A stretch of DNA of 64,000 nucleotides from Frankiales bacterium (GTDB lineage: Bacteria; Actinomycetota; Actinomycetes; Mycobacteriales; SCTD01): positions 590 through 64,589 of the forward strand of contig JAOPWV010000069.1 in assembly GCA_025965475.1 (NCBI GenBank), read 5' to 3'. The position numbers and the translations under genes are program-made. The notes below the pieces were generated by a model, which saw only the letters and a list, made by a program, of their open reading frames with translations, was not told the origin of the DNA and ran no database searches. Shown one piece after another: positions 1,113 through 23,824 of this stretch (positions within the stretch are counted from its first letter, which is position 1; every line of letters begins with the position of its first letter).

Positions 1113-2390
1113 CTATCCGACCGTGGGGAGAACCTCGGGCAGGTCGAGCAGGTGGCCCATCCGGTCCCGCTTGGTGCGCAGGTAGGAGACGTTCTCCGCG
1201 GTGACGTGGCTGGGTAGCGGCACCCGTCCGGCGATCGTGAGGCCGTAGCCCTCGAGTCCGGCACGCTTGGCCGGATTGTTGGTCAGCAGTCGCAGGGTGC
1301 GTACGCCCAGGTCGACCAGGATCTGCGCCCCGGTCCCGTAGTCGCGCGCGTCAGCGGGCAGGCCCAGGTACAGGTTGGCCTCGACCGTGTCCTGCCCGGC
1401 GTCCTGCAGTTGGTAGGCCTGCAGCTTGTGCAGCAGGCCGATGCCCCGGCCTTCGTGCCCGCGGATGTAGAGGACGACGCCGCGCCCCTCCTGCGCCACC
1501 GCACCCAGGGCGGCCTGCAGCTGCGGGCCGCAGTCGCAGCGCAGCGAGCCGAACACATCACCCGTGAGGCACTCGGAGTGCACCAGGACCAGGACGTCCT
1601 CGCCGTCGCCGATGTCGCCCATCACGAAGGCGACGTGCTCGCGCGCGTCGTACGAGGACCGGTAGCCGACGGCGGTGAACACGCCCGGGGTCAGCGGCAC
1701 GGTCGCCTCGGCGACCCGCTCGACCAGCGTGTCGAAGCGCCTGCGGTAGGCGATGAGGTCGGCGATGGAGATCAGGCAGAGGCCATGCTCACGGGCGAAC
1801 TCGCGCAGTTCCTCGCCGCGCGCCATGCCCGTCGGGTCCTGCTCGCTGACCAGCTCGCACAGCGTCCCGGAAGGGCGCAGCCCGGCGAGCACGGCGAGGT
1901 CGACGGCAGCTTCGGTGTGACCTGGCCGCCGCAGCACTCCCCCGTCCCGGGCGCGCAGTGGTACGACATGGCCTGGGCGCGCGAGGTCGACCGACATGGT
2001 CCCCTGGTCGGCGAGCAGCTGGATGGTGTGCGCCCGGTCCGCCGCCGAGATGCCGCTGGTCACGCCGTCGCGGGCGTCGACGGTGACGGTGTAGGCGGTG
2101 CCGCGACGGTCCTGGTTGACCCGGAACATCGGCGGCAGGTCGAGGCGGTCGGCATCGGCGTCGGTGACCGCGACGCAGATGTAGCCCGACGTATAGCGGA
2201 CCATGAACGCGACCAGCTCGGGGGTGGCCAGCTCTGAGGCGAAGATGAGATCGCCTTCGTTCTCGCGGTCCTCGTCATCCACGACGATGACGGGCCGGCC
2301 GCTCTTGATGGCGGCGATCGCGGCGTCGACCGACGCCCACTGCGGGCCGGTGTCCAGCTCCTCGACGTGCAGCTGCGGGTTGCCCGTCAT
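1113..2390 (-). CDS. ribBA: Bifunctional 3,4-dihydroxy-2-butanone-4-phosphate synthase / GTP cyclohydrolase II
   Basis: [43 protein letters not shown] and LTNNPAK motifs. Confidence 0.95.
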
Positions 2391-2884
2391 CAGCGGACCA
2401 GCGTCGTGAAGCCGGAGCGGTACCAGACGAGCGGCTGGTGCGCCATGTCGTCGTGCAACGCGAGCACGCGCAGGACGACGATGTCGTGGTCACCTGCTGC
2501 GTGGACGTTCTCCACGGAGCATTCGAGCAAGACGGGAGCCTCATCCAGGAAGACCGCGCCTGAGGGCACGGCGACGGAGGCGACCCCCGTCAGCCGGCCG
2601 TGGCGCTCCTTGCTCGCGAGCTGCCTCGCCTTCGGTGCGTGCGCCTCCCCCAGGACCGACACTCCCAGCGTCGGTGCCGTGGCGAGAACCGGCCAGGTGG
2701 TGGAGCTCCGCTGCACCGCGAACATGACCAGCGGCGGGTTCTGGGACACGCCGACGGTGAACGACGACACGACCATGACGGTCGGCGTGCCGTCGATGTC
2801 TGCGGCGACCGCCGCCACACCGGACGGGAAACCGGCGAACGCCTGCCGCAGAGCGGTCACGTCCGTGCCGACCGAAACGAGCAT
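2390..2884 (-). CDS. Flavin reductase family protein (reductase partner of a two-component monooxygenase)
   Basis: [33 protein letters not shown]; stop overlaps ribBA start. Confidence 0.9.
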
Positions 2885-2910
2885 GGTGACGACCTTTCGG
2901 GGCGGGGAGC

Positions 2911-3219
2911 CTAAGCCTGTGGTGCCGGCGCGAGTACTTCTCGGGTGACGCGTACGAGCTGCACGCCGGCCCCTGCGAAGTTCACGAGGTCCGCGGCGGC
3001 AGCCGAGCCTTCGGCAGAGGCGAAGGCGACGTCTGCATGCGCTTCGTCGGCGAAGGTCATGCGGGCCACCACGTGGGCCTCCGGGATGTCCCCGTAGCCC
3101 CAGCTGAACTCCGCGAGCCCCGGCATCGCCCGGGACAGGGGCACGTGGACGGTGCGGTAGCGCACGTCGAACGCCGACGCATCCTCCGGTGGGGCGTAGA
3201 TCGCAAAGACGTCGAACAC
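2911..3219 (-). CDS. EthD family reductase-like protein
   Basis: AFDVRYRTVHVPL..MPGL and SAEGSAAAADLVNFAG pattern, 102 aa. Confidence 0.85.
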   Translation of the reverse strand: MFDVFAIYAPPEDASAFDVRYRTVHVPLSRAMPGLAEFSWGYGDIPEAHVVARMTFADEAHADVAFASAEGSAAAADLVNFAGAGVQLVRVTREVLAPAPQA

Positions 3220-3446
3220 GGCGACCCCTTCTCGTCCGCGGGCGGAGTCCGATCGGCCTCGGATACCGCAGGGGGACCGTAGTCCGCGCTGTAACGGCTA
3301 TGCAAGACCTGATTCCGCTCTTTTCACGGGCGCCAGTGTCGTGTTACGTTCCGACGTGACGGGCGTCACTCCGCTGAGCGGGTGGCCCCACTGCCTCGTC
3401 TTCGTCAGCGCGTCTTCGTCAGATCCACTCCTCGAATGGAGCAGCT

Positions 3447-4931
3447 GTGACCGCGACCACTCCCCTTTCCGGTCTCCTCCCGGAAGCCGAGCGCTTCATC
3501 TCGCAGCCGGCGGTGCCGGCTGCAGCCGCGCACCACGACGGCCCGTGGATTCCTACACACGATCCGTCGACGGGACGGGAGATCACGCAGGTGGCCGCCT
3601 GTTCACCGCAGGAGGTCGACGCGGCCGTCCGCGCGGCGCACGACGCGTTCACCGTCTCGTGGGGGCGGATGTCGCCCGTTGCCCGGGAACGGGTGCTCCA
3701 CCGTCTGGCGGACCTGATCGAGGAGCACGCTCTCGAGCTCGCGCAGTACGACGCGTTGGAGAGCGGCAAGCCGGTGGCCTTCGTCCAGGCCATCGACATC
3801 GGCCTTGCGGTGGAGCAGTTCCGGTACTACGCCGGCTGGCCGACGAAGATCACCGGCACCGTCGTACCGGTCGCAGATCCTTCTGCGCACGTGTACACCA
3901 CGCGACGGCCGTACGGCGTCGTCGCCGCGATCACGCCGTGGAACTTCCCGTTGTGCCAGGCCGCCATCAAGATCGCCCCGGCCCTGGCGGCCGGAAACAC
4001 CGTCGTCCTCAAGCCCTCGGAGCTGACGTCGCTGTCGACGCTCCGGCTGGCGGAGCTGGCGCTCGAGGCGGGGCTGCCGGAGGGAACCCTGTCCGTGATC
4101 ACCGGCCCAGGGAGTGGGGCCGGAACGGCGCTGGTCACCCATGCGCTCGTGCCGGCGATCTCCTTCACCGGCTCGGAGGCGGTGGGCCGACACCTCGCGT
4201 CCCAGGCCGGCGCCGCGCTCAAGCACATCTCGCTCGAGCTGGGCGGAAAGAACCCGAACGTGATCTTTGCCGACGCCGACATCCAGGCGGCTGCGTCAGC
4301 GGCTGCCGCGACGGCCTTCTTCTACACCGGCCAGGTGTGTTTCGCCGGATCGCGGCTCCTGGTGCAGGAGAACGTCCTGGACGAGGTGCTGCAGGTGGTT
4401 CACGACCACGCCGCCGCGCTGGTGGTCGGACCCGGGCTGTCGGCCGACTCGACGATGGGGCCGCTGGTCTCCTCGGCGCATCGCGACAAGGTGCGCCGGT
4501 ACGTCGACGAGGCCGCCCGCGCCGGAGCCGACATCACCACCGGCGGACATGACATCGGCGGCGAGCTCGCCGGCGGCTTCTTCTTCGAACCGACGGTGGT
4601 GCTCAATCCGACGGACGATTCGCCGGTCGCCTCGGAGGAGGTATTCGGGCCGGTGCTCGTCGTGCAGACCTTCAGCGACGAGGACGAGCTGCTTCGGCGG
4701 GCGAACGCCACGCCGTACGGCCTGACGGCGGGGCTCTGGACGCGTGATGTCGGCCGGGCTCACGCTCTTGCCGACCGGCTCGAGGCCGGCACGGTGTGGG
4801 TGAACACGTATGGCGACTTCAGCGCGTCAGCCCCGTGGGGCGGAGCCAAGGCCTCCGGCCTCGGCCGGGACTGCGGGCCGGACGGGCTCAACAAGTACCT
4901 GGAGACCAAGAGCGTCTGGGTTGCGGGGTGA
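3447..4931 (+). CDS. NAD(P)-dependent aldehyde dehydrogenase
   Basis: ITPWNFP, LKPSE, FTGS, LELGGKNP (Glu), GQVCFAGSR (Cys), EEVFGP. Confidence 0.95.
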   Translation: MTATTPLSGLLPEAERFISQPAVPAAAAHHDGPWIPTHDPSTGREITQVAACSPQEVDAAVRAAHDAFTVSWGRMSPVARERVLHRLADLIEEHALELAQYDALESGKPVAFVQAIDIGLAVEQFRYYAGWPTKITGTVVPVADPSAHVYTTRRPYGVVAAITPWNFPLCQAAIKIAPALAAGNTVVLKPSELTSLSTLRLAELALEAGLPEGTLSVITGPGSGAGTALVTHALVPAISFTGSEAVGRHLASQAGAALKHISLELGGKNPNVIFADADIQAAASAAAATAFFYTGQVCFAGSRLLVQENVLDEVLQVVHDHAAALVVGPGLSADSTMGPLVSSAHRDKVRRYVDEAARAGADITTGGHDIGGELAGGFFFEPTVVLNPTDDSPVASEEVFGPVLVVQTFSDEDELLRRANATPYGLTAGLWTRDVGRAHALADRLEAGTVWVNTYGDFSASAPWGGAKASGLGRDCGPDGLNKYLETKSVWVAG

Positions 4932-4942
4932 GCCACCGCCGG

Positions 4943-5974
4943 TCAGGCCGGCTGGTACGGCAGCAGCGGCTTGTACAGCAGGTCCAGGTAGATGGACACG
5001 TCGACGGAGGCGACGCCGTCTATGGCGCGCACCTCGTTGTCGATGAGCGCCAGCAGGCTCTCGCGGTGCTCGCAGACCACCTCGGCCAGGACATCGCCCC
5101 GGCCGGCCGTGATCGCGACGTAGGAGACAGCGCCCAGCGCGGTCAGGCGTTCGGCGACATCGAGGGCTCGTGCTTCCGGAGCGAGCCGGATCGCGAGCCA
5201 GGCCGTTGCGGCGTACCCCAACGTGAGCGGGTTCGCGATGGACATGACCTTCACGACACCCGAGCTGGTCAGGCGCTGGAACCGCTGCCGGACCATCGTC
5301 TCCGAGACGCCCAGCCGCGCCGCTACGTCGCTGAAGGGGGTACGGCCGTCGAGGGCCAACTGCGTCACGATGGAGCGGTCGACCTCGTCCATGACGGTCG
5401 GCCGCACACCCGGCGTCGCCTTGAGACGCTCGGCATTGAAGCGGGCCTGCTGGTAGTGCAGCCGGAGATACGGCAGGACGTCCACGCCGGCTACGCCCGG
5501 CAGCGCACGGAACTTCGTGTCGACCAACGAGCGCAGCGCTGCGGAGTCCCGGCACAGCACCTCCACCTGCAGCGCAAACGGACCCGTCGTGACGGTGACG
5601 TAGTCGACCTCGGGCAGTTTCACGATCCGGGCCGCGAGCTCGTCAGTGCTCGCACCGTGGCCCAGGACCAGCCCCAGCAGGGCCATGGCGGCATAACCCA
5701 GCACTTCCGGATCCGTGACCGCAGCGATCTGCAGGACCCCGCGTTCCTGCAACCCCGCCACCTTGCGGCGGGCCGTCCGCTCGGTCACCCCGAGGCGCCG
5801 CGCCAACTCCGCGTAAGGGGCTCTGCCGTCCTCCTGGAGCAGGTCCACCAGCTGGAGCTCCACCGCGTCGAGCGCCGGTCCGGCGGGCGCAGTCCGCATG
5901 ACCGATGGCTGCACCGGCACCGGCTCCCCCAGCGCCTCTCCCGGACGCGACTGCTTAGCGGGCTGCGCTGACAC
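4943..5974 (-). CDS. Tandem (double) Lrp/AsnC family transcriptional regulator
   Basis: Two HTH-AsnC units (LQEDGRAPYAELARRLG; LALDGRTPFSDVAARLG); start may lie further downstream. Confidence 0.9.
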   Translation of the reverse strand: MSAQPAKQSRPGEALGEPVPVQPSVMRTAPAGPALDAVELQLVDLLQEDGRAPYAELARRLGVTERTARRKVAGLQERGVLQIAAVTDPEVLGYAAMALLGLVLGHGASTDELAARIVKLPEVDYVTVTTGPFALQVEVLCRDSAALRSLVDTKFRALPGVAGVDVLPYLRLHYQQARFNAERLKATPGVRPTVMDEVDRSIVTQLALDGRTPFSDVAARLGVSETMVRQRFQRLTSSGVVKVMSIANPLTLGYAATAWLAIRLAPEARALDVAERLTALGAVSYVAITAGRGDVLAEVVCEHRESLLALIDNEVRAIDGVASVDVSIYLDLLYKPLLPYQPA

Positions 5975-6072
5975 AGCCGCAATCTACAGCCAACGCGGAA
6001 TGGCACAGCGCGACGCCCGAACTGCCCCTGCGTGACCCGCGCGGGGCGCCTCGACCGAAGGAGACAACAGAC

Positions 6073-7146
6073 ATGCGCGTAGGCCTGCTTCAGGAAGGCG
6101 ACCTCGTTGGCACCGATGTCGCCAGCCGCTATCACCAGATGATCGAGGAGGTGCGCCTGGCCGACCGGATGGGCTTCAGCACCTGGGGAACTTCGGAGCA
6201 GCACTTCAGCCCGCCGCACTTCTCGGTCGCGGCCCCCGAGGTTCTCTACGCGGCCATTGCCGCCCAGACCGAGAACATCAAGCTGCGAACGATGGCCTCG
6301 GTACTGCTCAGCTGGAACCACCCCATCCTCATCGCGGAGCGCCTCGCCACTCTGGACATCGTCTCCCGGGGCCGCGCGGAGATCTGTACGGCCCGGAGCA
6401 ACAACCTGCACACGCTCGCGGCCTTCGGGGTCGATCCGTCGACGACCCGCGCGCAGTGGGAGGACGGCATGGACCTTCTGATGAAGGCGATCAGCCAGCC
6501 CGTGGTGGAACACGACGGGCCCGTGTGGAAGGTGCCCAGCCGCGAGATGATGCCCACTCCGGTCACCAAGCCGCACCCGCCCGTCTCCGTCGCTGCATCG
6601 AGCGTCCAGTCCCACGGCAATGCGGGTACGCGCGGGATCGGCGTGATCACGTTCGACAACTACTTCGGCTTCGAGTACCTCGACGAGTGCCTGTCCGAGT
6701 ACCGGACGACCTTCGACTCGAGCGACCACCAGCAGGTCATGGCACCGAACGACTACCGCGGCCTCTACGTCGCGACTGCGTTCTGCGCCCCCACCAAGGC
6801 TGAGGCGCTCGAGGTGGCCGGCGGCATCGCGAAGACCTATTTCGACTTCATCCTCGACCTCTACGTGCCGCTGGCCGACAACCCCGGCTACGAGTACCTC
6901 GAGCGCATCAAGCTGCTCATCGAGCACCGTGACGACATGGCGTGGCTGTGCGAGAACACCCCGGCTGTCATGATCGGCGATCCCGAGGACTTCATCCAGC
7001 GCATCAAGCAGCTGGAGTCGATGGGTATCGACGAGCTGCTGCTGCGCGTCGACGGCGTCGGGCACGACCAGATCATGCGCTGTCTCGAGCTGATCGGTCA
7101 CGAGGTCATTCCGGTGGTCGACCCGACGGCCGGAGCTGTCCGGTGA
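6073..7146 (+). CDS. LLM (luciferase-like) flavin-dependent monooxygenase
   Basis: ADRMGFSTWGTSEQHF, HPILIAERLATLDIVSRGR, PVTKPHPP, IGDPED; AAGGAG RBS. Confidence 0.9.
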   Translation: MRVGLLQEGDLVGTDVASRYHQMIEEVRLADRMGFSTWGTSEQHFSPPHFSVAAPEVLYAAIAAQTENIKLRTMASVLLSWNHPILIAERLATLDIVSRGRAEICTARSNNLHTLAAFGVDPSTTRAQWEDGMDLLMKAISQPVVEHDGPVWKVPSREMMPTPVTKPHPPVSVAASSVQSHGNAGTRGIGVITFDNYFGFEYLDECLSEYRTTFDSSDHQQVMAPNDYRGLYVATAFCAPTKAEALEVAGGIAKTYFDFILDLYVPLADNPGYEYLERIKLLIEHRDDMAWLCENTPAVMIGDPEDFIQRIKQLESMGIDELLLRVDGVGHDQIMRCLELIGHEVIPVVDPTAGAVR

Positions 7147-7373
7147 ACGCAGAGGACCGGCTCCACCGGGCCGGTGTCGACGGCGAACTCGACGGTCGGG
7201 CTGTGCTGGAGCACGACGCGGCGTCGGAGGCGACCGAACTGGCTCGCCGCTGCAGCTTGATCGAAGAACTGGACCTCCAAGGCCTGCCGCTGCTGCGGCG
7301 CGACTACGTGACTCTCGTCGTCGCGACCGTGCTCATCCCGATCGTCCTCATCATCGTTGGGAACCTGAAATGA
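7143..7373 (+). CDS. Small single-TM membrane protein (76 aa)
   Basis: GTGA overlap with LLM stop, ATGA overlap with permease start; C-terminal YVTLVVATVLIPIVLIIVG helix. Confidence 0.7.
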   Translation: MNAEDRLHRAGVDGELDGRAVLEHDAASEATELARRCSLIEELDLQGLPLLRRDYVTLVVATVLIPIVLIIVGNLK

Positions 7374-8875
7374 GCGCGCACGAGACCTCGGCCCAGCACG
7401 CGGCCCTGCAGAACGGCTGGCCGCAGACGCGTCAGGAGCGTCACTGGAGCGGCACGAACATCTTCGGGACAGCGATCGCCACCGCGATCGCGACCTGGTG
7501 CTTCATCATCGGCGGCTTCGTCAGTTTCTATCTTGCCGCCGCGCCGGGCACGCTCGCTGTCCTGGCCGGTTCGCTGATCGGCATGCTGTTCATCGTGCTG
7601 GCGCTGCTGCCCGTATGCGGCAAGTACGGGATCGACTCAGCGGTCTCGACCCGCCCGCAGTTCGGCGTGCGCGGCTCGCTCTTGTCCGTCGTCCTGATCT
7701 ACGGCTCGACGCTCGGCTGGAACATCATCCTGTTCATCTTCATGGGCCGCGCGACCAACTCGATCCTCAAGGGGTTCGGGGTGCATCCCCCCGGGTGGGT
7801 CACCGGCGCCGCCGGCGTGGCGGGCATCCTGCTCGCCCTGCTGGCCCTACGGCGAGGGCCCGAGTCGCTGAAGGACTTCGGGCCCCCGATCGCCGTTCTG
7901 ACTCTGGTGCTGGGCGTCGTGGTGATGTACCTGCTGGTCCACAAACTGGGCGTCCAGAAGCTGCTCCATGCTCATGCGGTGGCGCCTGCGGCATCGCGCC
8001 GGGTGAACTGGGCCAGTGGCGTCGAGGTACTCGTCGCCTCCAACCTGTCGTGGTGGGCGTACACCGGCGGCATCGTCCGGAACGGCCCGTCGGCCCGGAA
8101 GGCGATGTGGCCGCTGATCACCGGTCTGGGGCTCGGCGTGGGCGTCGGCTCGCTCGCCGGTTTCTACGCCGGCCTGGTGATCCCGACGTCGGGCGGTGAC
8201 CCCACCCAGTTCCTGATCCAGACGGGCGGCAACGTCATCGGGGTCATCCTGCTCGTCTTCGTGATCATCGCCGACTTGGGCACGGTGGTGGTGGGGGTCT
8301 ACTCGTCCGCCATCGGCTTGCGTCAGGTGGCCGGCGTGTCGAAGCTCTCGTGGAACGCGACGACGCTGCTGGCGGTCCTTCCTGCGTTCGTCATCGTCGG
8401 GATCTTCCCCGACCAGGTCTTCGACCGCTTCGGAACCTTCCTCGCCTTCCTCGGGGTGTGCTTCGGTCCGGTCTGCGGCATCCAGATCGCCGACTACTTC
8501 CTGCTTCGCCGTCAGACGCTGGATGCGCACGGCCTGTATGACCGGACGCGTGCCGGCGCCTACCGGTACTGGGCGGGCTTCAATCCGGTCGGCTTCGTGT
8601 CCTTCGCCGCGGGCGTCGTGGTGTATCTCTATCTGCTCGACCCGGTGACGTATTCGTCTCGCACGCCGTTCGAGTTCCTGGGGGCGTCGATCCCCTCGGT
8701 GTTCGTCGCCGGGCTCGTCTACTACGTCGGCACCCGGCTGGTCCTCGTTCCAGCGCGTCGCGGCGGTTACGAGCACCTCGAGCCTGCCGGCCGTGCGCTG
8801 CGCAGCCAGCGTCGTATCGGCCCGGACCCGCAACCGGGAGCGGCTTCCACGGCCACGGTGCCGGACACCCTGTGA
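7370..8875 (+). CDS. NCS1 purine/cytosine permease family transporter
   Basis: Many TM helices, KYGID..RPQFGVRGS, IADYFLLRRQ, YWAGFNP. Confidence 0.88.
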   Translation: MSAHETSAQHAALQNGWPQTRQERHWSGTNIFGTAIATAIATWCFIIGGFVSFYLAAAPGTLAVLAGSLIGMLFIVLALLPVCGKYGIDSAVSTRPQFGVRGSLLSVVLIYGSTLGWNIILFIFMGRATNSILKGFGVHPPGWVTGAAGVAGILLALLALRRGPESLKDFGPPIAVLTLVLGVVVMYLLVHKLGVQKLLHAHAVAPAASRRVNWASGVEVLVASNLSWWAYTGGIVRNGPSARKAMWPLITGLGLGVGVGSLAGFYAGLVIPTSGGDPTQFLIQTGGNVIGVILLVFVIIADLGTVVVGVYSSAIGLRQVAGVSKLSWNATTLLAVLPAFVIVGIFPDQVFDRFGTFLAFLGVCFGPVCGIQIADYFLLRRQTLDAHGLYDRTRAGAYRYWAGFNPVGFVSFAAGVVVYLYLLDPVTYSSRTPFEFLGASIPSVFVAGLVYYVGTRLVLVPARRGGYEHLEPAGRALRSQRRIGPDPQPGAASTATVPDTL

Positions 8876-10545: not shown

Positions 10546-10570
10546 CGCGTACGCCATCGGCCGGGGTCCG

Positions 10571-11257: not shown

Positions 11258-11330
11258 CGTAGAGCCAGGGCGTCCCTCGCGGTGACCGGCACGCGGAGCA
11301 ACGTCGGTTCGCCGGGGCTGACCCTTCGTG

Positions 11331-12584
11331 TCAGCCGCCGTCGGACACGAGAAGGGCCTCCAGACAGTCGGCCAGGGCAACCGCACCGCGTTCCGCGTCC
11401 TCGTCCTCGACGTACTCCTCAGGAGAATGCGATACACCGGTCGGGTTCCGTACGAAGAGCATGGCCGTCGGCACGTGCGGAGCGAGGACGCCGGCGTCGT
11501 GCCCTGCGCCCGTCTCGAGAACTGGAGCATGAGGTAGTACCGCGGACAGGCGCTGGCGCAACGGGCTGCTGAAGTGGACGGTCCCGCTGTACGACTCCTC
11601 GCTCAACGACGCCGTACAGCCCTCCTCGGCGGCGATGACCCGCGCCCGGGCGTGCAGGTCCTCGACGAGCGCAGCAGTCGCCGCGTCGTCCGGATGCCGG
11701 ACGTCCAACCAGAGGTCGACCCGCGAGGCGATCACGTTCGTGCCCCCTGGGACGGGCGCGACCCGCCCCACCGTGGCCCTCGCCCCCTTCTGGGCGGCTG
11801 CACCGTCACGGATGGCGACGATGGTTCGCGCAGCCGCGACCATGGGGTCGCGACGGTCGGCCATGAGCGTCGTTCCCGCGTGGTTCCCCTGGCCGGAGAC
11901 GGTGAGCTTCCACCGGCCATGACCAAGGATCGACGACCCGACAGCAACCGGCTCGCCGACATCGATGAGGCTGCGCCCCTGCTCCACGTGCAGCTCGACG
12001 AACGCCCCTATCCGTCGCAGGGCCTCGTCGTCACGACCCAGACGGTCGGGGTCGACACCCGACGCGGCGCAGACGTCGGCGAACGTGTCCCCCTGTTGAT
12101 CGCGAAGGTTCCGCGCGCGGTCCGGGTCGATCGCACCGGCCATCAGGCGCGAACCCAGGCAGGCGACGCCGAACCTCGAACCCTCTTCCTCGCCGAAGAC
12201 AGCGATGGCCAGCGCCCGGCGGGGGGTGGTGCCCCGCGTCACCAGGTGGTCCACGGCGGCGAGCGCGGAGGCGACTCCGAGAGGACCGTCGAACTGTCCG
12301 CCACCCGGTACGGAGTCGAGGTGGCTCCCCGTCACGACAGAACCCTCCAGGGGATGTCCCCGGGGATTCCACCAGGCCCAGATCGTCCCGTTGCGGTCGG
12401 TGGTGACCTCGAGGCCGCGCGCCGAGGCGGCTCCGGCAAACCACTGCCGGAGGTCCTGCTCGGCGGTCGAGAACACGGGCCGCGAGTAGCCACCGCGGAC
12501 CGGATCGATTCCGGTGGAGGCGATCTCCCGAAGAAGACCGGCCGCCGAGCCGGAGCCGGGCGCGCGGATCGGGCCCTCAGGCAT
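11331..12584 (-). CDS. M20 Zn amidohydrolase ('allantoate amidohydrolase', type found in actinobacterial hut clusters)
   Basis: GSHLDSVPGGGQFDGPLG, EEEGSRF, ELHVEQG, NHAGTT, GAGHDAG, GVSHSPEE. Confidence 0.88.
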   Translation of the reverse strand: MPEGPIRAPGSGSAAGLLREIASTGIDPVRGGYSRPVFSTAEQDLRQWFAGAASARGLEVTTDRNGTIWAWWNPRGHPLEGSVVTGSHLDSVPGGGQFDGPLGVASALAAVDHLVTRGTTPRRALAIAVFGEEEGSRFGVACLGSRLMAGAIDPDRARNLRDQQGDTFADVCAASGVDPDRLGRDDEALRRIGAFVELHVEQGRSLIDVGEPVAVGSSILGHGRWKLTVSGQGNHAGTTLMADRRDPMVAAARTIVAIRDGAAAQKGARATVGRVAPVPGGTNVIASRVDLWLDVRHPDDAATAALVEDLHARARVIAAEEGCTASLSEESYSGTVHFSSPLRQRLSAVLPHAPVLETGAGHDAGVLAPHVPTAMLFVRNPTGVSHSPEEYVEDEDAERGAVALADCLEALLVSDGG

Positions 12585-12684
12585 CGACGGTCACGTCCGG
12601 TTGCGGGGACCGCGAACTGCCGCCGTCCCCGCAGTTCTCTGGGAGGATGCGTACGTGCATCGCGCCGGGGACGAAGCGACTTCC

Positions 12685-13239
12685 ATGGTCCTTCCCTTCG
12701 AGCTGTTGACCCCGAGCGCCTGGCGCAACGGAGGTGGTGTCACACGTGAGGTCGTCGCCTCCCGGAAACCGGAGTGGCGGCTGAGCATCGCCTCCCTTCA
12801 GGAGAGCGGCCCCTTCTCGTTCTTCCCAGGCCTGGACCGCACCTTCCTCCTCGCGTCGGGCGGCGGGGTGACGCTCCACGTCGACGCGTCGGCACACCCT
12901 CTTGCCTTCGGGCAGTGCCTTGCCTTCGGAGGTGAATCCACGGTGGTCGCGGACGTTCCGCCGGAAGGTGGGGTCGGCGTGAACCTGATGGTTCGCCGCG
13001 ACCACGGCGTCGGGACCATCCGCGTGCTCCCCGTGGCGGGAAGCGCCGATATGGCCGCGCGCGGGCTCCGGGCTGTGGTTGTCCTGACGGGTGAGTTGGC
13101 ACTCGCTGACGGATCGCGACTGGCTCCGCTGCATTCGCTGGTCCACCTCCCGCCGTCGATCAGCCTCGTCGGCGAGGGGACGGTCGCGCAGGTGATCGTC
13201 AACGCATCTCACCGGCCCCCTCGTACGGATGCAGGCTGA
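12685..13239 (+). CDS. hutD: HutD/Ves family protein
   Basis: WRNGGGVTREV, WRLSIA, GPFSFFPGLDR, NLMVRR signature. Confidence 0.82.
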   Translation: MVLPFELLTPSAWRNGGGVTREVVASRKPEWRLSIASLQESGPFSFFPGLDRTFLLASGGGVTLHVDASAHPLAFGQCLAFGGESTVVADVPPEGGVGVNLMVRRDHGVGTIRVLPVAGSADMAARGLRAVVVLTGELALADGSRLAPLHSLVHLPPSISLVGEGTVAQVIVNASHRPPRTDAG

Positions 13240-14389
13240 TCAGCGGGTCGTTCTCCGCGAACCGGGAGTACCGAAAGTCGTCGGGATCGACGTTCGGCAG
13301 CTGCGTCGAACCCTCGAGCAGGAGGTCGGCGACGAGCGTGCCGACCGCCGGCGAGATCTTGAACCCGTGGCCCGAGAACCCGGTGGCCAGGAACAGGCCG
13401 GCGACCGGCGACGGGCCGATGATGGGGTTGTAGTCGGGCGTGACGTCGTACGCCCCGACGTAGGAGCTGGTGATCCGGGGGTCGGGCATGCTCGGCAACC
13501 GGTGCTCGAGTTTGCCGATGTTCTTCTCGATCGCCTTCTCGTCCGCGCGGTTGACGTAGTTGTCCGGGTCGATGTACTCCGGTGCGGCGTGATCGCTGTT
13601 TCCCACGAGCAGCTCACCGTTGGGCTCGCGGCAGAGGTACTGCAGACCAGCCAGATCCGACAGCACCGGTACCTCCGGCGTGGGCTCCCCCTGGTGGATC
13701 AGCACGAGCTGGGCGCGTTGCGCCTTGACGGGGATGTCGACGCCGACGCCGGCGGCCAGTTCAGGCGCCCACGGACCGGTCGCCAGGATGACGTGGTCGG
13801 CATGCACCTCGTCGCCGTTGGCCAGCACTGCTCCGTGGACCCAGCCGCCGGAGCCCTGGAGCAGGGACGCCACCCGGGCTCCCTGACGGATCTTGACGCC
13901 GAGCTTGCGAGCGGACGCAGCGAACGCCATTCCCGTGATGTAGGCCTCGCCACGCCCGGACAGCGGCTCGTACGCGAAGGCCGCGAAGTCATCGAGGTTC
14001 ATGCCGGGCCAGAGCTCGGCCATCTTGTCGTGGGCGATGAAGTCCACGGCGATACCGAGGTCCCGCTGCATGGCGACGTTCGCCTCGAGAGGTGCGACGT
14101 TGTTCTCCCCCACGCCCACGACGTAGCCGCACGGCCGGAACGCCATGTCGTCTCCGAAGATCTCGGTCGCCCGGGTGAAGACGTCGACGCCGTACCAGGA
14201 CATCGCGGCGAGCGACGGGGTGCCGTAGTGGCAACGGACGACGCCGCTGGACTTGCCGGTCATTCCCGAGCACAGCGTGCTGCGTTCGAGGACCAGGACG
14301 TCGGTCTCCCCGCGGTCGGCCAGCGACCAGGCGATGGCAAGGCCCTCGAGACCCCCGCCGATGATCAGGAACTTCGTCGTCTCAGCCAT
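13199..14389 (-). CDS. FAD-dependent oxidoreductase (DAO/sarcosine oxidase-like; putative N-methylglutamate oxidase/dehydrogenase)
   Basis: IIGGGLEG, MTGKSSG, YDVTPDYNPIIG, GFSGHGFK; directly after mgsC. Confidence 0.8.
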   Translation of the reverse strand: MAETTKFLIIGGGLEGLAIAWSLADRGETDVLVLERSTLCSGMTGKSSGVVRCHYGTPSLAAMSWYGVDVFTRATEIFGDDMAFRPCGYVVGVGENNVAPLEANVAMQRDLGIAVDFIAHDKMAELWPGMNLDDFAAFAYEPLSGRGEAYITGMAFAASARKLGVKIRQGARVASLLQGSGGWVHGAVLANGDEVHADHVILATGPWAPELAAGVGVDIPVKAQRAQLVLIHQGEPTPEVPVLSDLAGLQYLCREPNGELLVGNSDHAAPEYIDPDNYVNRADEKAIEKNIGKLEHRLPSMPDPRITSSYVGAYDVTPDYNPIIGPSPVAGLFLATGFSGHGFKISPAVGTLVADLLLEGSTQLPNVDPDDFRYSRFAENDPLISLHPYEGAGEMR

Positions 14390-14443
14390 GGTCTTCTCTC
14401 GTCGTTGCGTGTCCCGCGGGCCGAGGTGCTGCTGGGCCAGCCG

Positions 14444-15766
14444 TCACAGGCCCGCACCGGGAATCCAGCTGGTGCCCGCCAGCGGTACTCGTGCCATGGC
14501 AGCCGCCTCGATGGTGAGCGCGACCAGATCCTCGGGCTCGAGGTGCTGCAGGTGCGACTTCCCGCAGGCCCGGGCGATGGTCTGCGCCTCCATCGTCAGG
14601 ACGCGCAGGTAGTTCGCGACCCGGCGTCCGCCGGCGACGGGGTCGAGCCGGGCGGACAGCTCGGGGTCCTGCGTCGTGATACCGGCGGGGTCGCGACCGT
14701 CCTGAAAGTCGTCGTAGAAACCGGCAGCAGAGCCGAGAGCCGCGTACTCGGCGGCGTGGCGCGGATGGTTGTCCCCCAGTGCGATAAGGGCAGCCGTCCC
14801 GATCGCGACTGCGTCGGCCCCCAGCGCCATCGCCTTGGCGACGTCGGCGCCCGTCCGGATCCCCCCTGACACGATCAGCTGTACCTGCCGGTGCATGCCC
14901 AGCTCCTGCAGCGCCTGGACCGCCTGCGGGAGCGCGGCGAGCGTCGGAATGCCGACGTGCTCGATGAAGACGTCCTGCGTCGCCGCCGTACCGCCCTGCA
15001 TCCCGTCGACGACCACCACATCGGCTCCCGCCGCGACGGCGAGCTTGACGTCGTAGTACGTGCGCGTCGCACCGACCTTGACGTAGATCGGCTTCTCCCA
15101 GTCGGTGATCTCGCGCAGCTCGAGGATCTTGATCGCCAGGTCGTCGGGCCCCGTCCAGTCCGGGTGCCGGCAGGCGGAGCGCTGGTCGATGCCTGGCGGC
15201 AGCGTCCGCATGGCCGCGACCCGGTCCGAGATCTTCTGGCCGAGCAGCATCCCGCCGCCGCCGGGCTTCGCGCCCTGGCCGAGGACGACCTCGATGGCGT
15301 CGGCCTTGCGCAGGTCGGTCGGGTTCATGCCGTAGCGGGACGGGAGGTACTGGTACACAAGGTGTTTCGACTGGCCGCGCTCCTCCGGGGTCATCCCACC
15401 GTCGCCGGTGGTCGTCGAGGTACCGACCTCGCTGGCGCCTCGCCCCAACGCCTCCTTCGCCTGGGCGGACAGCGCGCCGAAGCTCATTCCGGCGATCGTG
15501 ACGGGCGTCGCGAGCCGCAGCGGGTACTTCGCGTGGCGGTCGCCCAGGGTGACGTCGGTGCCGCACCTCTCGCGGTAGCCCTCGAGCGGGTAGCGGGACA
15601 TGGACGCACCGAGGAACAGCAGGTCGTCGAAGTGGGGCAACCGGCGTTTGGCGCCCCACCCGCGGATGTCGTACACCCCGGTCTCGGCAGCCCGCTGGAT
15701 GCCGGCGATCGTGGCGCGGTCAAAGGTCGCCGACTCGCGGAGGCCGAGGACGCTGGGGTCGGTCAC
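14444..15766 (-). CDS. mgsC: N-methylglutamate synthase FMN subunit (glutamate synthase FMN domain, GlxD)
   Basis: MSFGALS, TTTGDGG, GQGAKPGGGG, SACRHPDWTGPDDL, DGMQGGT; GTG start with AGGAG RBS. Confidence 0.9.
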   Translation of the reverse strand: MTDPSVLGLRESATFDRATIAGIQRAAETGVYDIRGWGAKRRLPHFDDLLFLGASMSRYPLEGYRERCGTDVTLGDRHAKYPLRLATPVTIAGMSFGALSAQAKEALGRGASEVGTSTTTGDGGMTPEERGQSKHLVYQYLPSRYGMNPTDLRKADAIEVVLGQGAKPGGGGMLLGQKISDRVAAMRTLPPGIDQRSACRHPDWTGPDDLAIKILELREITDWEKPIYVKVGATRTYYDVKLAVAAGADVVVVDGMQGGTAATQDVFIEHVGIPTLAALPQAVQALQELGMHRQVQLIVSGGIRTGADVAKAMALGADAVAIGTAALIALGDNHPRHAAEYAALGSAAGFYDDFQDGRDPAGITTQDPELSARLDPVAGGRRVANYLRVLTMEAQTIARACGKSHLQHLEPEDLVALTIEAAAMARVPLAGTSWIPGAGL

Positions 15767-15774
15767 GAAGGCTC

Positions 15775-16509
15775 CTAGTACGCGGCGGAGTTGTGGGCGG
15801 CGAAGTGGTAGAGGGTGCGGCCGGAGCCGTAGCGCCGGAAGGCGCGGGGGTCGTGGTCCAGCCGCGCGGCCGTCAGGAGCGCCGCCAGCTCTGCCAGGTG
15901 CTCGTCGCGCATGGGCTTCTCGATGCAGTCGGCGCCCAGGGCGCCGACCTTGCCGCGCACGTAGATGCGGGCCTCGTACACGGAGTCCCCCAGGTCGTCG
16001 CCCGCGTCGCCGCAGACGACCAGCCGTCCCGCCTGTGCCATGAAGGCGCTCATCGGGCCGATGTCGCCTCCGACGACGATGTCGATGCCCTTCATCGAGA
16101 TCCCGCAACGCATGGACGCGGAGCCCTCGATGACCAACAGCCCGCCGTGTCCGGTGGCCCCGGCCGACTGTGAGGCGTCCCCGCGGATGCGGACACTGCC
16201 GGACATCATGTTCTCCGCAACGCCCGTGCCCACGTTGCCGTGCACGACGATCTGCCCGCCGTCGTTCATCCCGGCGCAGTAGTAGCCGGCGTGTCCGCGG
16301 ATGTCGACGGTCAGTGCCTGGTCGATGCCTGCTGCGATGGCATGGGCCCCTTGCGGCTGCAGCACCTCGTACGCCGCCGCGCTCGGGTGGTGCAGTTCGT
16401 TGTTGAGAGCACGCACCGTCGCGACGGACACGTCGATGGACACGAGTCGCTCCAGCGGAGGCGGGCCGGCGTGGTTCGGCGGTGTGGCGTCCGTTGTCAG
16501 CGGTTCCAT
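15775..16509 (-). CDS. mgsB: N-methylglutamate synthase subunit B (GXGXG beta-helix, GlxC)
   Basis: GHAGYYCAGMN, GVAENMMSG, RCGISMKG, LGDSVYEA. Confidence 0.9.
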   Translation of the reverse strand: MEPLTTDATPPNHAGPPPLERLVSIDVSVATVRALNNELHHPSAAAYEVLQPQGAHAIAAGIDQALTVDIRGHAGYYCAGMNDGGQIVVHGNVGTGVAENMMSGSVRIRGDASQSAGATGHGGLLVIEGSASMRCGISMKGIDIVVGGDIGPMSAFMAQAGRLVVCGDAGDDLGDSVYEARIYVRGKVGALGADCIEKPMRDEHLAELAALLTAARLDHDPRAFRRYGSGRTLYHFAAHNSAAY

Positions 16510-17390
16510 GCGTAGACCTTCTCGGGCTCGGGCTCGTAGATGCGGGCGTGGTCGATGCCGGGAAGGTCTGCAAGGGCACGGAACTCGGACGCCATCGCCA
16601 CCCAGGCATCGGTCTCCGCGATGACCGCGGGCTTGCAGGCGATCGCGTCGCGCACGACGGCGAACCCGTCCTTGCTGGTCACGAGAAGGGTGTAGAAGCC
16701 GTCGAAGCGTTCGCAGAGCAACCGGAGCGCCTCGTCCAGGTCGTCGCCCTGCGCCAGTCGTGAGGCGACGAACCGCGCGCCGACCTCGGAGTCGTTCTCG
16801 GAGTCGAAGGACGCCCCGTCCGCGATCAGCTCGCGGCGGATCGTCGCGTGGTTGGCGAAGGAACCGTTGTGCACGAGGCACTGGTCCGGACCGACCGAGA
16901 ACGGGTGGCAGCCCTGCGGCGTCACGGCGGACTCGGTCGCCATCCGGGTATGGGCCAGGCCCTGCCAGCCTTGCGCGTGAGCCAGGTCGTAGGTCTTCGC
17001 CAGTGCCCGGGGGTGGCCGATGCCCTTGTAGACCGTCAGGTCCGTACCCGAGCCGACCACCAGGGCAGCGGGTGCGGCGACGCGCACCGCCGCAACCAGC
17101 TCGTCCACACTGACCGGCGCAGCGAGCACGGTGGTGTCGCCCGCCTCTGTCGACATCACGTCCGGCTGTCCGGCCAGAAGCTTCCGCAGCGCCTCGGGCA
17201 GGCCCAGCGGCGCGCCGAGGAGGCTGACAGCGGCGTACCCCTCCGGACAGCGGCGCTGGTCGCCGTACACGGCCACACCGGCCGAGTCGGGACCGCGTTC
17301 GACGACCTGACAGAGCATCGTCTCCAGCAGGCCGCCGAGACGGGGGTAGAGCGCGGGGTCGCGTAGGTGCAGACCGACGATGCCGCACAC
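16497..17390 (-). CDS. mgsA: N-methylglutamate synthase subunit A (class II glutamine amidotransferase, GlxB)
   Basis: N-terminal (M)CGIVG, ERGPDSAG, HTRMATES, HNGS, ENDSE. Confidence 0.9.
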   Translation of the reverse strand: MCGIVGLHLRDPALYPRLGGLLETMLCQVVERGPDSAGVAVYGDQRRCPEGYAAVSLLGAPLGLPEALRKLLAGQPDVMSTEAGDTTVLAAPVSVDELVAAVRVAAPAALVVGSGTDLTVYKGIGHPRALAKTYDLAHAQGWQGLAHTRMATESAVTPQGCHPFSVGPDQCLVHNGSFANHATIRRELIADGASFDSENDSEVGARFVASRLAQGDDLDEALRLLCERFDGFYTLLVTSKDGFAVVRDAIACKPAVIAETDAWVAMASEFRALADLPGIDHARIYEPEPEKVYAWNR

Positions 17391-17449
17391 GGGCCGGCTC
17401 CTTTCTTCTCTTCGTGAGCGATCTCGGGCGAGCGCGATGTCCGGCGCGG

Positions 17450-18829
17450 TCAGAACGCAGTCAGGTATCGGTCGTGCTCCCACGTGCCGACGGTGGCGTG
17501 CCAGGCGAAGAACTCCTCGCGCTTGAGTGCGACGAAGTAGTCCGCGATCCCGGGCCCGGCGCAGTCCAGGGCACCGCTGACGACGGCGTCGGCGCCCAGC
17601 GCGTCGACCGCGTGCAGGAGGGTCGGAGGGAGCTCCGGGCGCTGTGGTGCGTCGGGTCCCGTTCCGGGCGTGCCGGGGTTGAGGCGACGCTCGATGCCGT
17701 CCATGCCGGCGGCGAGGGTCGCAGCGAGCGCGAGATACGGGTTCGCGGAACCGTCGCCGCCGCGGAGCTCGATGCGGTGGTGGTCCGGGATCCTCACGTA
17801 GTGCGTGCGGTCGTTGCCGCCGAAGCTCGCCCGGCGAGGTGACCAGGTCGCCCCGGAGCGCGTGGACGTTGCGCCGGTGCGCTTGTAGGAGTTGACGGTC
17901 GGCGCGAGCACGGATTGAAGTCCGGGCGCGTGGTCCAGGATCCCCGCCATGAACTGGTAGGCGATTTCCGAGAGACCGAAACCGTGCTCGTCGGCATCCG
18001 TTGCAGGAAACAGGCTGGCCCCGTCCCGCCACAGCGACAGGTGGAAGTGCATCCCGGACCCGGTGCGGTCGGCGAACGGCTTGGGCATGTACGTCGCCGT
18101 CATGCCGCGCTGCTCAGCGAGCATCGAGATCAGGTAGCGCGCGGTGATGACCCGGTCGGCCGTCGTCAGGGCGTCCGCGTAGGCGAAGTTCTGCTCGAAC
18201 TGACCGTTGGCGTCTTCGTGATCGTTCGCGTAGTTGCCCCAGCCGAGGGCGTTCATCGCGCTGGAGACGGCGGTCAGGTGTTCGTACATCCGGGTCAGCC
18301 CGCGCGCGTCGTAGCAGGGGCGCTCGGCGACATCGAGTGCATCGGCAGGCACGAGCTTGCCCTGCGCGTCCCGCGACACCAGGAAGTACTCCACCTCGGC
18401 GCCGGCGAACAGCTCCAGCTGCGCCGCCCGTGCCTTCGCGAGCATCGACTTGAGGATCACCCGCGGGGCAAACGGCCAAGGCCGGCCCTCCACGTGCGGG
18501 TCGCAGTGCACCAGCGCAAGACCGTCCCGGACCCACGGGATCGGCGTGTAGCTCCCGAGGTCGGGCATCGCGACCAGATCCGGATCACTGGGCTGCTGGC
18601 CGATCGCACCGACCGCATAGCCGGCGAATCCGACGCCCGCCTCCTGCAGCTCGGCTGCGGCTTCGACCGGGACGAGCTTGGCGCACGGCTTCCCGGTCAG
18701 ATCGACGAACACCGCCAGCAGGAAGCGGACCCCGTCCTTCTTGGCCCGCGTCGCGAGGTCGTCCTGCGCCGAGGTCAGGGATGAGCGATCGGTGGTGCCC
18801 GGTGACAGAGCCGCCGCGTCAATCGTCAT
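17450..18829 (-). CDS. glnT: Type III glutamate-ammonia ligase / gamma-glutamylmethylamide synthetase (GmaS)
   Basis: KPCAKLVP, GFAGYA, DHEDANGQFE, MPKPF..TGSGMHFH, NPYLA; first gene before mgsABC. Confidence 0.9.
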   Translation of the reverse strand: MTIDAAALSPGTTDRSSLTSAQDDLATRAKKDGVRFLLAVFVDLTGKPCAKLVPVEAAAELQEAGVGFAGYAVGAIGQQPSDPDLVAMPDLGSYTPIPWVRDGLALVHCDPHVEGRPWPFAPRVILKSMLAKARAAQLELFAGAEVEYFLVSRDAQGKLVPADALDVAERPCYDARGLTRMYEHLTAVSSAMNALGWGNYANDHEDANGQFEQNFAYADALTTADRVITARYLISMLAEQRGMTATYMPKPFADRTGSGMHFHLSLWRDGASLFPATDADEHGFGLSEIAYQFMAGILDHAPGLQSVLAPTVNSYKRTGATSTRSGATWSPRRASFGGNDRTHYVRIPDHHRIELRGGDGSANPYLALAATLAAGMDGIERRLNPGTPGTGPDAPQRPELPPTLLHAVDALGADAVVSGALDCAGPGIADYFVALKREEFFAWHATVGTWEHDRYLTAF

Positions 18830-19524: not shown

Positions 19525-19553
19525 CGTTCCCGACCATCCCGCAGGAGAAGACC

Positions 19554-20345: not shown

Positions 20346-20392
20346 CCGGGTTCGAGCGAGGTACCGCACGACGACCAGGCAGGCTGTCCGGC

Positions 20393-21264: not shown

Positions 21265-21268
<4 letters not shown>
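20393..21268 (+). CDS. modB: Molybdate ABC transporter permease
   Basis: LPLVLPPVVGG, EEAAATLGA, ARALGEFGAT. Confidence 0.93.
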
Positions 21269-22416
<1,148 letters not shown>

Positions 22417-22500
22417 AGCTCCGCCTGACGACACAGGCCGCGCCGGACACCTCGACGTGAGGGTCGGCGCGGCCTGAGTGTCAGGGCTGGCGGTGGAGGC

Positions 22501-23697: not shown

Positions 23698-23719
23698 CCG
23701 GGTCCTCCCTGAAACTGGT

Positions 23720-23744: not shown

Positions 23745-23824
23745 TGTCGGGTTCCAGCCTGACCGCACGGGACACCTGGACCTATGGGAGCTGACACACC
23801 GTTCTGCCAGATCCCTGTTGCAGC

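Follow-up and report, generated by a model that had tools for sequence, protein, structure and literature searches.

A conserved luciferase-like monooxygenase gene cluster beside methylamine assimilation genes: a candidate route for cleavage of N-methylated heterocycles

We analyzed a 64,000-nucleotide stretch of the genome of a Frankiales bacterium (GenBank assembly GCA_025965475.1, contig JAOPWV010000069.1), referred to here as the window; its contig begins 589 bases upstream of the window start. A gene cluster organized around a luciferase-like flavin monooxygenase (LLM; unit 1, positions 1113-10545) lies tail to tail with a second set of genes (unit 2, 10571-18796) predicted to assimilate methylamine by way of N-methylglutamate (gmaS-mgsABC). 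Judged from its sequences, the clade to which the window LLM belongs is large, tight and well supported, and no characterized member of it was found. The reading we favor, to which we give about an even chance, is that unit 1 breaks down an N-methylated heterocycle or betaine by oxygenolysis, releasing methylamine that unit 2 would consume. What is new is this uncharacterized clade with its modular components; the type of ring-cleavage pathway is itself known.

Plants, algae and animals produce N-methylated pyridinium compounds and related betaines in abundance. In the open-access and bioRxiv literature (article texts), we found only two bacterial routes for such compounds, those for trigonelline (2018) and homarine (2026), and no paper that describes the present cluster or links one like it to gmaS. 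Its carriers include soil actinobacteria, Roseovarius, and Alphaproteobacteria of marine and sponge-associated origin. The position of this widely conserved gene set next to methylamine genes points to an unnamed nutrient common to soil actinobacteria, methylotrophs and marine bacteria. Because the family is large, conserved and unannotated and has culturable carriers, the search for its substrate is a direct bench problem. Such carriers include Arthrobacter crystallopoietes DSM 20117 (on plasmid pLDW-10), Xanthobacter autotrophicus DSM 431, Hyphomicrobium facile DSM 1565, Methyloligella sp. GL2 and Mycobacterium palustre DSM 44572. If the methylamine link is true, the cluster connects the breakdown of heterocycles with methylotrophy and with the cycling of nitrogen and one-carbon (C1) units, and it would show a pathway in nature whose hydrolase and transporter have been replaced repeatedly by non-orthologous proteins.

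The monooxygenase clade and its conserved gene cluster

Relatives of the window LLM are widespread. A scan of one genome per species returned 375 stretches, so that at least 375 species genomes encode one; the best 80 of these stretches yielded 78 related loci, which together with the window make up the 79 loci compared below. Window-type LLMs are 58-89% identical across phyla. The best 120 of 673 homologues, all generically named, are 60-88% identical to the window LLM, save one 225-residue fragment identical to the query; they derive from Geodermatophilus, Nocardioides, Streptomyces, Microbacterium, Mycobacterium, Rhodococcus and marine Alphaproteobacteria. The gene is present in two of 301 genomes of the window's order, none of four from the same genus and none of 32 from the same family.

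A maximum-likelihood tree built from 37 LLMs groups those of the window type into one clade (27 rows, support 98/96). The LLM of the pyridine-type cluster on plasmid p2MP is a weak sister (87/29) excluded from that clade, the tetramethylpyrazine-type LLM also falls outside it, and three LLMs of DUF1185-containing clusters constitute a remote clade (100/99). Global identity to the window LLM is 36% for the PyrA-like, 38% for the TpdA-like and 22-23% for the DUF1185-type enzymes. Two motifs that a sequence-only reading of the window had singled out as atypical, GTSEQHF (residues 39-45) and ARSNN (107-111), are real and prove to be a signature of the clade: among 16 family members, G39-F45 and R108-N111 are invariant and A107 nearly so. 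In its extended form, WGTSEQHF...TARSNN, the signature is partly common to the p2MP enzyme (WGCSEQH/TARSNN) and absent from DUF1185-type LLMs; the corresponding motifs of TgnB-like enzymes are WIGEHH/LARGAY.

The window LLM does not lie within a characterized clade such as one acting on sulfur compounds, and none of the NCBIfam subfamily models reached its cut-off. A sulfonate-type enzyme was rejected (SsuD, 31 bits against a cut-off of 518; SfnG, 39 against 383), as is a RutA-type enzyme, no RutA model being among the NCBIfam matches listed. F420-type models also fell below cut-off (best TIGR03619, 80 bits against 167), and the clade is common in Proteobacteria.

Cluster membership was counted from clustered open reading frames (ORFs) within 9 kb of the LLM in the 79 loci, a conservative procedure (tblastn finds more EthD genes). 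By this count the LLM itself was recovered in 71 loci and a tandem Lrp regulator in 67, followed by an aldehyde dehydrogenase (ALDH; 51), a flavin reductase (48), an Amidohydro_3 amidohydrolase (AH3; 41), an NCS1-family permease (36), an EthD protein (32) and a BD-FAE/Abhydrolase_3 alpha/beta hydrolase (21). The recurrence of the cluster in 78 loci from several phyla speaks against a chance arrangement. No locus has both AH3 and the alpha/beta hydrolase, 17 loci have neither, and loci of both kinds are scattered over the LLM tree. Their mutual exclusion and scatter imply that a step of amide or ester hydrolysis is required and that the enzyme performing it has been replaced repeatedly. More distant LLMs also adjoin amide hydrolases, namely creatininase, amidase and gamma-glutamyltransferase.

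The transporter is likewise exchanged. In seven of the 79 loci (L050, L060, L061, L065, L067, L070 and L072), all of which lack the NCS1 permease, a betaine-type ATP-binding cassette (ABC) transporter is adjacent. Its binding protein carries the OpuAC domain (PF04069, 162 bits), with ProX and choline-binding models below their cut-offs, and its permease scores 316 bits with ChoW (cut-off 363) and 285 with ProW (cut-off 439). A predicted ProX/ChoW-type transporter in place of NCS1 supports an N-methylated or betaine substrate.

Other components are less frequent. A ribBA gene lies within 9 kb of the LLM in six loci and a RibB-only gene in four further ones; flavin-supply genes elsewhere comprise ribBA on plasmid pYKAM101, a riboflavin kinase on p2MP and a GTP cyclohydrolase II in locus L098. 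A SnoaL protein is encoded in nine of the 79 loci. DAO-type genes stand near the LLM in nine of the 78 related loci, six of them near-identical Hyphomicrobium loci, and are weak evidence. We also observed a CobW/COG0523-type GTPase in nine of the 79 loci (L020, L027, L032, L035, L040, L050, L060, L061 and L070; for example, L070:8911-9867), which may act as a chaperone that supplies metal to the Amidohydro_3 enzyme.

Some genomes harbor two or three paralogous window-type clusters (L053, L060 and L064 on one Hyphomicrobium contig; L009 with L071; L011 with L066). The paralogous LLMs are 51-60% identical to the window LLM, and their number per genome suggests a family of related substrates. A window-type cluster is also carried, amid insertion sequence (IS) elements, by plasmid pAre of the arecoline-degrading Arthrobacter sp. 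NyZ413, at G006:C2:145770-146825, where the LLM is 74% identical. On pAre (L112, L113; G006:C2:116000-176600), genes for a flavin amine oxidase and an alpha/beta hydrolase lie ~28 kb and ~23 kb from the cluster, respectively, and the region further encodes an ornithine-cyclodeaminase-family protein, amino-acid permeases and PntAB.

Linkage to methylamine assimilation genes

Homologues of the cluster do co-occur with gmaS and mgs genes. Besides the window, gmaS-mgsABC adjoins the cluster in three of the 78 related loci, from Nocardioides sp. IC4_145 (L004), Mycobacterium sp. SMC-4 (L009) and M. palustre (L021); extended stretches for L004 and L021 overlap the original loci at 100% and carry complete gmaS-mgs units. 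The paralogous LLM cluster at L066 has a gmaS at a distance of ~12 kb. M. litorale combines a paralogous window-type cluster with a gmaS (65% identical) and a TgnB-like LLM, both ~9-12 kb away from it. At the level of whole genomes, TIGR03105, the model that gmaS matches, exceeds its cut-off in 39 of 50 carriers, including 10 of 20 actinobacterial carriers; three additional matches are truncated by the end of a contig. As background, the window's order reaches that cut-off in 31 of 301 genomes and the window's family in two of 41; these co-occurrence counts come from related genomes and are not independent. The LLM and gmaS units are each rare in the window's lineage, and thus two rare accessory units stand side by side here. 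Hyphomicrobium, Methyloligella, Hansschlegelia, Xanthobacter and Ancylobacter, all genera of facultative methylotrophs, account for 16 of the 78 loci.

The methylamine unit also exists on its own. Among 20 TIGR03105 genes surveyed from 19 genomes of the window's order, 18 stand with mgsB and mgsC in conserved order, and mgsA was matched in 17. An XRE-cupin regulator accompanies gmaS-mgs in 17 of 18 actinobacterial units, a DAO gene (at least 49% identity) follows mgsC in 10 of 18, and mgsC is 82-93% identical across them. This conservation marks gmaS-mgs-XRE-cupin as a self-standing actinobacterial unit. An M20 gene occurs in one of the 18 surveyed units. We noted the insertion of this M20 amidase, which passes the NCBIfam model "allantoate amidohydrolase," within the gmaS-mgs unit of three genomes (the window; L122:11-1168, from L004/L122; and L098:3759-5021), and its absence from the remaining 17 mgs-bearing units examined. 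It may serve either purine catabolism or the hydrolysis of an N-acyl or N-carbamoyl amine.

A precedent for the proposed hand-over of methylamine comes from a second type of LLM cluster. Perchat et al. reportedly described the trigonelline pathway TgnA-F of Acinetobacter baylyi ADP1 in 2018. TgnD is reportedly an alpha/beta-fold hydrolase, and trigonelline catabolism is reported to release methylamine. As stated in excerpts of the respective papers, TgnA and TgnB open the trigonelline ring (PMC8269262; PMC13236597), and TgnF, a DUF1185 homologue, stimulates the semialdehyde dehydrogenase TgnE (PMC7913881). Locus L101, from Pseudomonas sp. MN1F, encodes in this order an NCS1 permease, a flavin reductase, a 346-residue LLM, a DUF1185 protein, an alpha/beta hydrolase, an ALDH and a GntR regulator. 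Four of the 120 listed homologues of this LLM (75-80% identical) are named [quoted passage not shown] by the Joint Genome Institute (JGI), and on the strength of that name and the DUF1185 gene we take the L101 type to be TgnB. The best Protein Data Bank (PDB) match of the L101 alpha/beta hydrolase, 3-oxoadipate enol-lactonase, is uninformative.

Three genomes have a TgnB-type cluster immediately next to mgsC-mgsB-mgsA-gmaS: Pseudomonas sp. MN1F (L101:2049-19776), where an ammonium-transporter gene lies between the two; the Arthrobacter sp. NyZ413 chromosome (L102:5115-19542); and an actinobacterium (G199; L098:2884-19906). In M. litorale (L124:1270-5753), a TgnB-like LLM lies ~2.2 kb from gmaS, and just those two genes were seen. 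In the literature searched, we found no report that links trigonelline-type genes to the N-methylglutamate pathway. If trigonelline degradation releases methylamine, the adjacency of TgnB-type clusters and gmaS would be a physical expression of the same hand-over that we propose for the window. The two cluster types coexist in at least three genomes (G006, G032 and G048), which argues that they act on different substrates. One window-type locus of the 79 bears a DUF1185 gene; it is that of Pseudonocardia acidicola (L003:~18206), with the gene ~7 kb downstream of the LLM, and a TgnB-type cluster may abut the window-type cluster there.

Several observations weigh against coupling of the cluster to methylamine use. 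A gmaS-mgs unit is within reach in only three of the 78 related loci, and all gmaS-adjacent cases belong to one eight-row actinobacterial subclade in which two are sister mycobacteria; the confinement to one subclade means that independent events are few. Eleven of the 50 carriers, including Arthrobacter, Leucobacter, Nocardioides PD653 and Sphingobium, have no TIGR03105 match above cut-off; in three of the 11 the match is cut at a contig end. The presence of gmaS in 29 of 30 alphaproteobacterial carriers is uninformative, the background counts being those for the window's order and family. TIGR03105 is named for a type III glutamine synthetase, and the methylamine specificity of GmaS is predicted. 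An MgdABCD-type dehydrogenase is not in the window, and the SoxD family was not found in the genome, a search for which the control was equally without match. NCS1 permeases are not specific for methylated compounds, and a pathway analogous to that for pyridine would release ammonia rather than methylamine. Overall, the comparative support for coupling the cluster to the N-methylglutamate pathway is moderate. The proposal that an N-methylated substrate feeds methylamine to the neighboring operon thus gains from the betaine transporters and the TgnB-type precedent, and is held back by the adjacency in a minority of loci within one actinobacterial subclade.

Gene content of the window

Genes were called from codon-position G+C (the window averages ~70% G+C) and checked against Pfam and NCBIfam profiles (Table 1). 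All components named by the sequence-only reading (LLM, flavin reductase, ribBA, EthD, ALDH, NCS1, amidohydrolase, double Lrp and gmaS-mgsABC) are present. That reading also placed the cluster next to gmaS-mgsABC; the two are adjacent, but genes that it had not listed (XRE-cupin, M20, HutD and DAO, 10571-14389) lie between them. Unit 1 consists of three transcription units: EthD-flavin reductase-ribBA on the minus strand, ALDH on the plus strand, and the tandem Lrp gene divergent from LLM-NCS1-AH3. The ribBA and flavin reductase genes overlap by 1 nucleotide; this ribBA is an extra copy, 69% identical to another on contig C33 of the genome (G000:C33). A GGAG ribosome-binding site precedes the LLM gene. 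The closest solved structures to AH3 are uncharacterized YtcJ-like hydrolases (3icj and 3igh). Unit 2 runs on the minus strand from 18796 to 10571 in the order gmaS, mgsA, mgsB, mgsC, DAO oxidase, M20 amidase and XRE-cupin regulator, and the predicted MgsA N terminus reads V-CGIVG. A 211-codon ORF at 12577-13212 on the minus strand was discarded as spurious, having no family match and atypical codon-position G+C and overlapping the plus-strand HutD gene.

Table 1. Genes of units 1 and 2 in the window
Feature	Coordinates	Strand	Evidence and remarks
ribBA, bifunctional 3,4-dihydroxy-2-butanone 4-phosphate (DHBP) synthase/GTP cyclohydrolase II	1113-2390	-	NF006803, 682 bits (cut-off 569); last gene of the EthD-reductase-ribBA operon
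NAD(P)H:flavin reductase, HpaC/RutF type, LLM partner	2390-2884	-	PF01613, 99.8 bits
EthD-family small alpha+beta barrel protein	2911-3219	-	TIGR02118, 62 bits (cut-off 30.5)
NAD(P)-dependent aldehyde dehydrogenase (ALDH)	3447-4931	+	PF00171, 558 bits; no NCBIfam equivalog at cut-off
Tandem (double) Lrp/AsnC regulator, divergent from LLM	4943-5974	-	Two HTH_AsnC and two ligand-binding stretches
Luciferase-like flavin monooxygenase (LLM), oxygenase component	6073-7146	+	PF00296, 131 bits, residues 15-320
NCS1-family permease, presumed substrate uptake	7370-8875	+	PF02133, 100 bits
Amidohydro_3 (YtcJ-like) metal-dependent amidohydrolase (AH3), presumed deformylase/amide hydrolase	8872-10545	+	PF07969, 215 bits; HxH motif
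XRE-helix-turn-helix (HTH) + cupin regulator, boundary gene of gmaS-mgs unit	10571-11257, start estimated	-	HTH_31/HTH_3 and Cupin_2
M20 amidase, hydantoinase/carbamoylase family	11331-12584	-	NF006770, 599 bits (cut-off 372); TIGR01879, 304 bits (cut-off 204)
HutD/Ves-family protein, between minus-strand DAO and M20 genes	12685-13239, start estimated	+	PF05962, 94 bits (cut-off 25); ORF 12514-13239
DAO-family flavin adenine dinucleotide (FAD) oxidoreductase resembling SoxB/N-methyltryptophan oxidase	13199-14389	-	PF01266, 204 bits; under every NCBIfam cut-off
mgsC, flavin mononucleotide (FMN) glutamate-synthase-like subunit of N-methylglutamate synthase	14444-15790, start approximate	-	PF01645, 310 bits
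mgsB, GXGXG subunit	15775-16485, start approximate	-	PF01493, 30.8 bits, just under cut-off 32.5; FwdC-like TIGR03122, 49 bits
mgsA, class-II (Ntn) glutamine amidotransferase-like subunit	16497-17388	-	Matches glmS and purF N-terminal domains, E 3e-25
gmaS/GlnT, gamma-glutamylmethylamide synthetase candidate	17450-~18796, start approximate	-	TIGR03105, 589 bits (cut-off 469.6)

An Rfam scan of window positions 1-24000 gave no riboswitch or other RNA family at gathering score, a promoter scan gave no promoter-like sites, and a terminator scan gave five terminator-like sites against 4.6 expected. Comparison with five genomes of the same genus did not locate the borders of the island, as the mod genes are just 40-57% identical and the flanks are not syntenic.

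Further gene sets lie in the remainder of the window. Beside gmaS, positions 19114-33077 encode a ModE-like protein and ModABC, then an FAD monooxygenase, CoxE (VWA), CoxG, a molybdenum hydroxylase (large subunit, xanthine-dehydrogenase family), a cupin and a GAF-PucR protein; this set could be a purine or N-heterocycle hydroxylation module. At 38925-42485 on the minus strand, a Methyltransf_33 histidine-specific methyltransferase, an FGE-sulfatase/DinB protein and a GCS2 ligase correspond to EgtD, EgtB and EgtA and resemble a set for ergothioneine biosynthesis. A molybdopterin oxidoreductase at 47848-51156, also on the minus strand, appears as two ORFs of the same frame split by a single TGA (...NQARI-TGA-HSATVPG...), which looks like the selenocysteine codon of a formate-dehydrogenase-type alpha subunit.

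Proposed route, rival explanations and known systems

By analogy with pyr-, tpd- and tgn-type systems, we propose the following route. The NCS1 permease would import a polar N-heterocycle, for which a pyridinium-type compound or betaine with an N-methyl group is the likeliest candidate. The flavin reductase would deliver reduced flavin, the supply of which the extra ribBA copy would boost, and the LLM would oxidatively open the heteroaromatic ring next to the nitrogen, without prior hydroxylation, to give an N-formyl (N-methylformamido) enamine aldehyde. ALDH would oxidize the aldehyde end, perhaps assisted by the EthD protein, which may serve the cluster as a helper. AH3 would then strip the formyl or acyl group and the enamine would collapse to an amine and a carbonyl acid, so that the predicted products are formate, methylamine and a small acid entering central metabolism. 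GmaS would ligate methylamine to glutamate, MgsABC would form N-methylglutamate, and the single DAO oxidase would oxidize it to glutamate and a C1 unit. The tandem Lrp regulator would control unit 1. As substrate, our best guess is neither trigonelline nor homarine but another betaine or cation of the pyridinium type. We tentatively extend this to a picture that we hold more doubtful than the route itself: a third, unnamed route, separate from tgn and hom, that would handle a widespread heteroaromatic betaine or cation with an N-methyl group, and in which restricted methylotrophs (Hyphomicrobium) harvest methylamine and formate and the hydrolase step has been swapped several times between two unrelated folds.

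The substrate may instead be an N-heterocycle without a methyl group, such as pyridine, a pyridone, a pyrimidine or a vitamin-derived ring. Ammonia would then be the nitrogenous product, and the proximity of gmaS-mgs would reflect co-transfer of accessory nitrogen-metabolism genes or chance. This would fit the 75 of 78 loci without nearby gmaS-mgs and the 11 carriers without gmaS above cut-off, the composition of the p2MP cluster, which is the nearest to that of the window, the weak matches of the NCS1 permease to nucleobase, hydantoin and vitamin transporter models (NCBIfam), and the module of molybdenum hydroxylase, FAD monooxygenase and PucR at 22.5-33 kb of the window. It sits less well with the betaine-type ABC transporters that take the place of NCS1 in seven loci, with the enrichment of methylotroph genera among carriers, with the equal adjacency of TgnB-type clusters to gmaS, and with an adjacency in four genomes that is far above random placement (by our own estimate, below 1% per 4-6 Mb genome). 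We regard a non-methylated substrate as unlikely. The methylamine-gene link and the betaine transporters together suggest a charged, methylated substrate rather than pyridine.

A methylated substrate could still be trigonelline itself, degraded by an isofunctional second pathway with the substrate of TgnAB and another oxygenase clade, hydrolase and helper. The logic and the number of steps are equal (reductase, LLM, ALDH, hydrolase, small helper), TgnB-type clusters too have NCS1 permeases and a similar gmaS-mgs neighborhood, and a search of the whole genome of the window gave no match to DUF1185 (PF06684; the control search was also silent), hence no canonical tgn cluster. In the protein Atlas, the feature-nearest cluster to the window LLM is auto-named TgnB (0.97), a lead at most, since LLM subfamilies are not resolved in this way and a query in the opposite direction was uninformative. 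The window LLM is, however, 22-23% identical to the TgnB-named family and in a separate clade, for which reason we rejected TgnB orthology; the trigonelline name appears in none of the 120 listed homologues of either of two window-type searches; and DUF1185 in a single window-type locus, together with the genomes that hold both cluster types, speaks the same way. A second trigonelline pathway therefore strikes us as rather improbable.

We give a still smaller probability to a role without ring opening, in which the LLM would oxygenate or dealkylate an acyclic amine, amide or lactam (NtaA/EmoA-type C-N cleavage or Baeyer-Villiger oxidation), with the amidohydrolase and ALDH processing the fragments. 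The LLM superfamily is chemically diverse, the relatives in the PDB are distant LLMs, luciferases and Baeyer-Villiger-type enzymes with low scores (best 2i7g, E 1e-24), and the Hyphomicrobium loci have a dimethylglycine dehydrogenase (DMGDH)-like DAO-FAO_M gene and polyamine-type ABC transporters nearby. Yet the NtaA/DmoA family model scores just 31 bits against a cut-off of 280, and the closest homologues all stand in clusters that resemble heteroaromatic ring-cleavage pathways.

For the favored reading, cleavage of an N-methylated heterocycle or betaine with release of methylamine, comparison with known systems gives the following picture. Unit 2 has gmaS-mgsA-mgsB-mgsC in the canonical order of the N-methylglutamate pathway of methylotrophic Proteobacteria; unlike that pathway, which has the four-subunit MgdABCD, it has a single DAO oxidase and an XRE-cupin regulator. 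For the homarine operon homABCDER, the article text of PMC13236597 calls HomA FAD-binding and HomC a peptidase, gives HomB as unannotated and does not contain the word "luciferase." On these descriptions in the article text, we rejected identity with this operon.

By composition, the closest analogue is the pyr-like cluster on p2MP, closer than tgn or tpd, although the sequence-only reading's analogy with the latter two holds for gene composition. Casaite et al. reportedly described a pyridine pathway (pyr genes) on plasmid p2MP of Arthrobacter sp. 68b in 2020. In the p2MP record, the LLM stands beside a flavin reductase, a 569-residue amidohydrolase, a succinate-semialdehyde dehydrogenase and a riboflavin kinase. 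The window shares with it the SEQH...TARSNN signature, a flavin reductase, an Amidohydro_3-type amidohydrolase, an aldehyde dehydrogenase and a gene for flavin supply (ribBA in the window, riboflavin kinase on p2MP), with identities of 36% for the LLM, 27% over the full length for the amidohydrolase and 34% for ALDH. It differs in having a permease, EthD and the tandem Lrp regulator, and its LLM lies in a separate tight clade and not in the same orthologous group. TpdABC is said to form the tetramethylpyrazine pathway of Rhodococcus jostii TMP1, and a tpd-like cluster on a plasmid of Rhodococcus pyridinivorans SB3094 has a 38-39% identical LLM with an amidase, a LuxR regulator and a short-chain dehydrogenase/reductase (SDR) adjacent. 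As in tpd, an amide hydrolase would act after ring opening in the window; unlike the window, the tpd-like cluster has an amidase-signature hydrolase, LuxR, an SDR and a SnoaL-like partner and lacks ALDH, EthD and a permease. NfdA of Arthrobacter pascens is reportedly an N-substituted formamide deformylase and belongs to the same Pfam family as AH3 (Amidohydro_3). Deformylation of an N-substituted formamide is the type of reaction that we propose for AH3, the likeness being one of family.

With tgn, the window has in common a start by LLM and flavin reductase; an ALDH, a hydrolase and a small helper to follow; an NCS1-type permease; and adjacency to gmaS-mgsABC. The helper is EthD where tgn has DUF1185/TgnF, the hydrolase Amidohydro_3 where tgn has an alpha/beta fold, and the regulator a tandem Lrp where tgn has GntR. 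On the predicted protein families, the locus thus belongs neither to tgn, from which LLM orthology, DUF1185 and the hydrolase fold separate it, nor to pyr, from which it differs in orthologous group, yet it would work like the known LLM ring-cleavage pathways.

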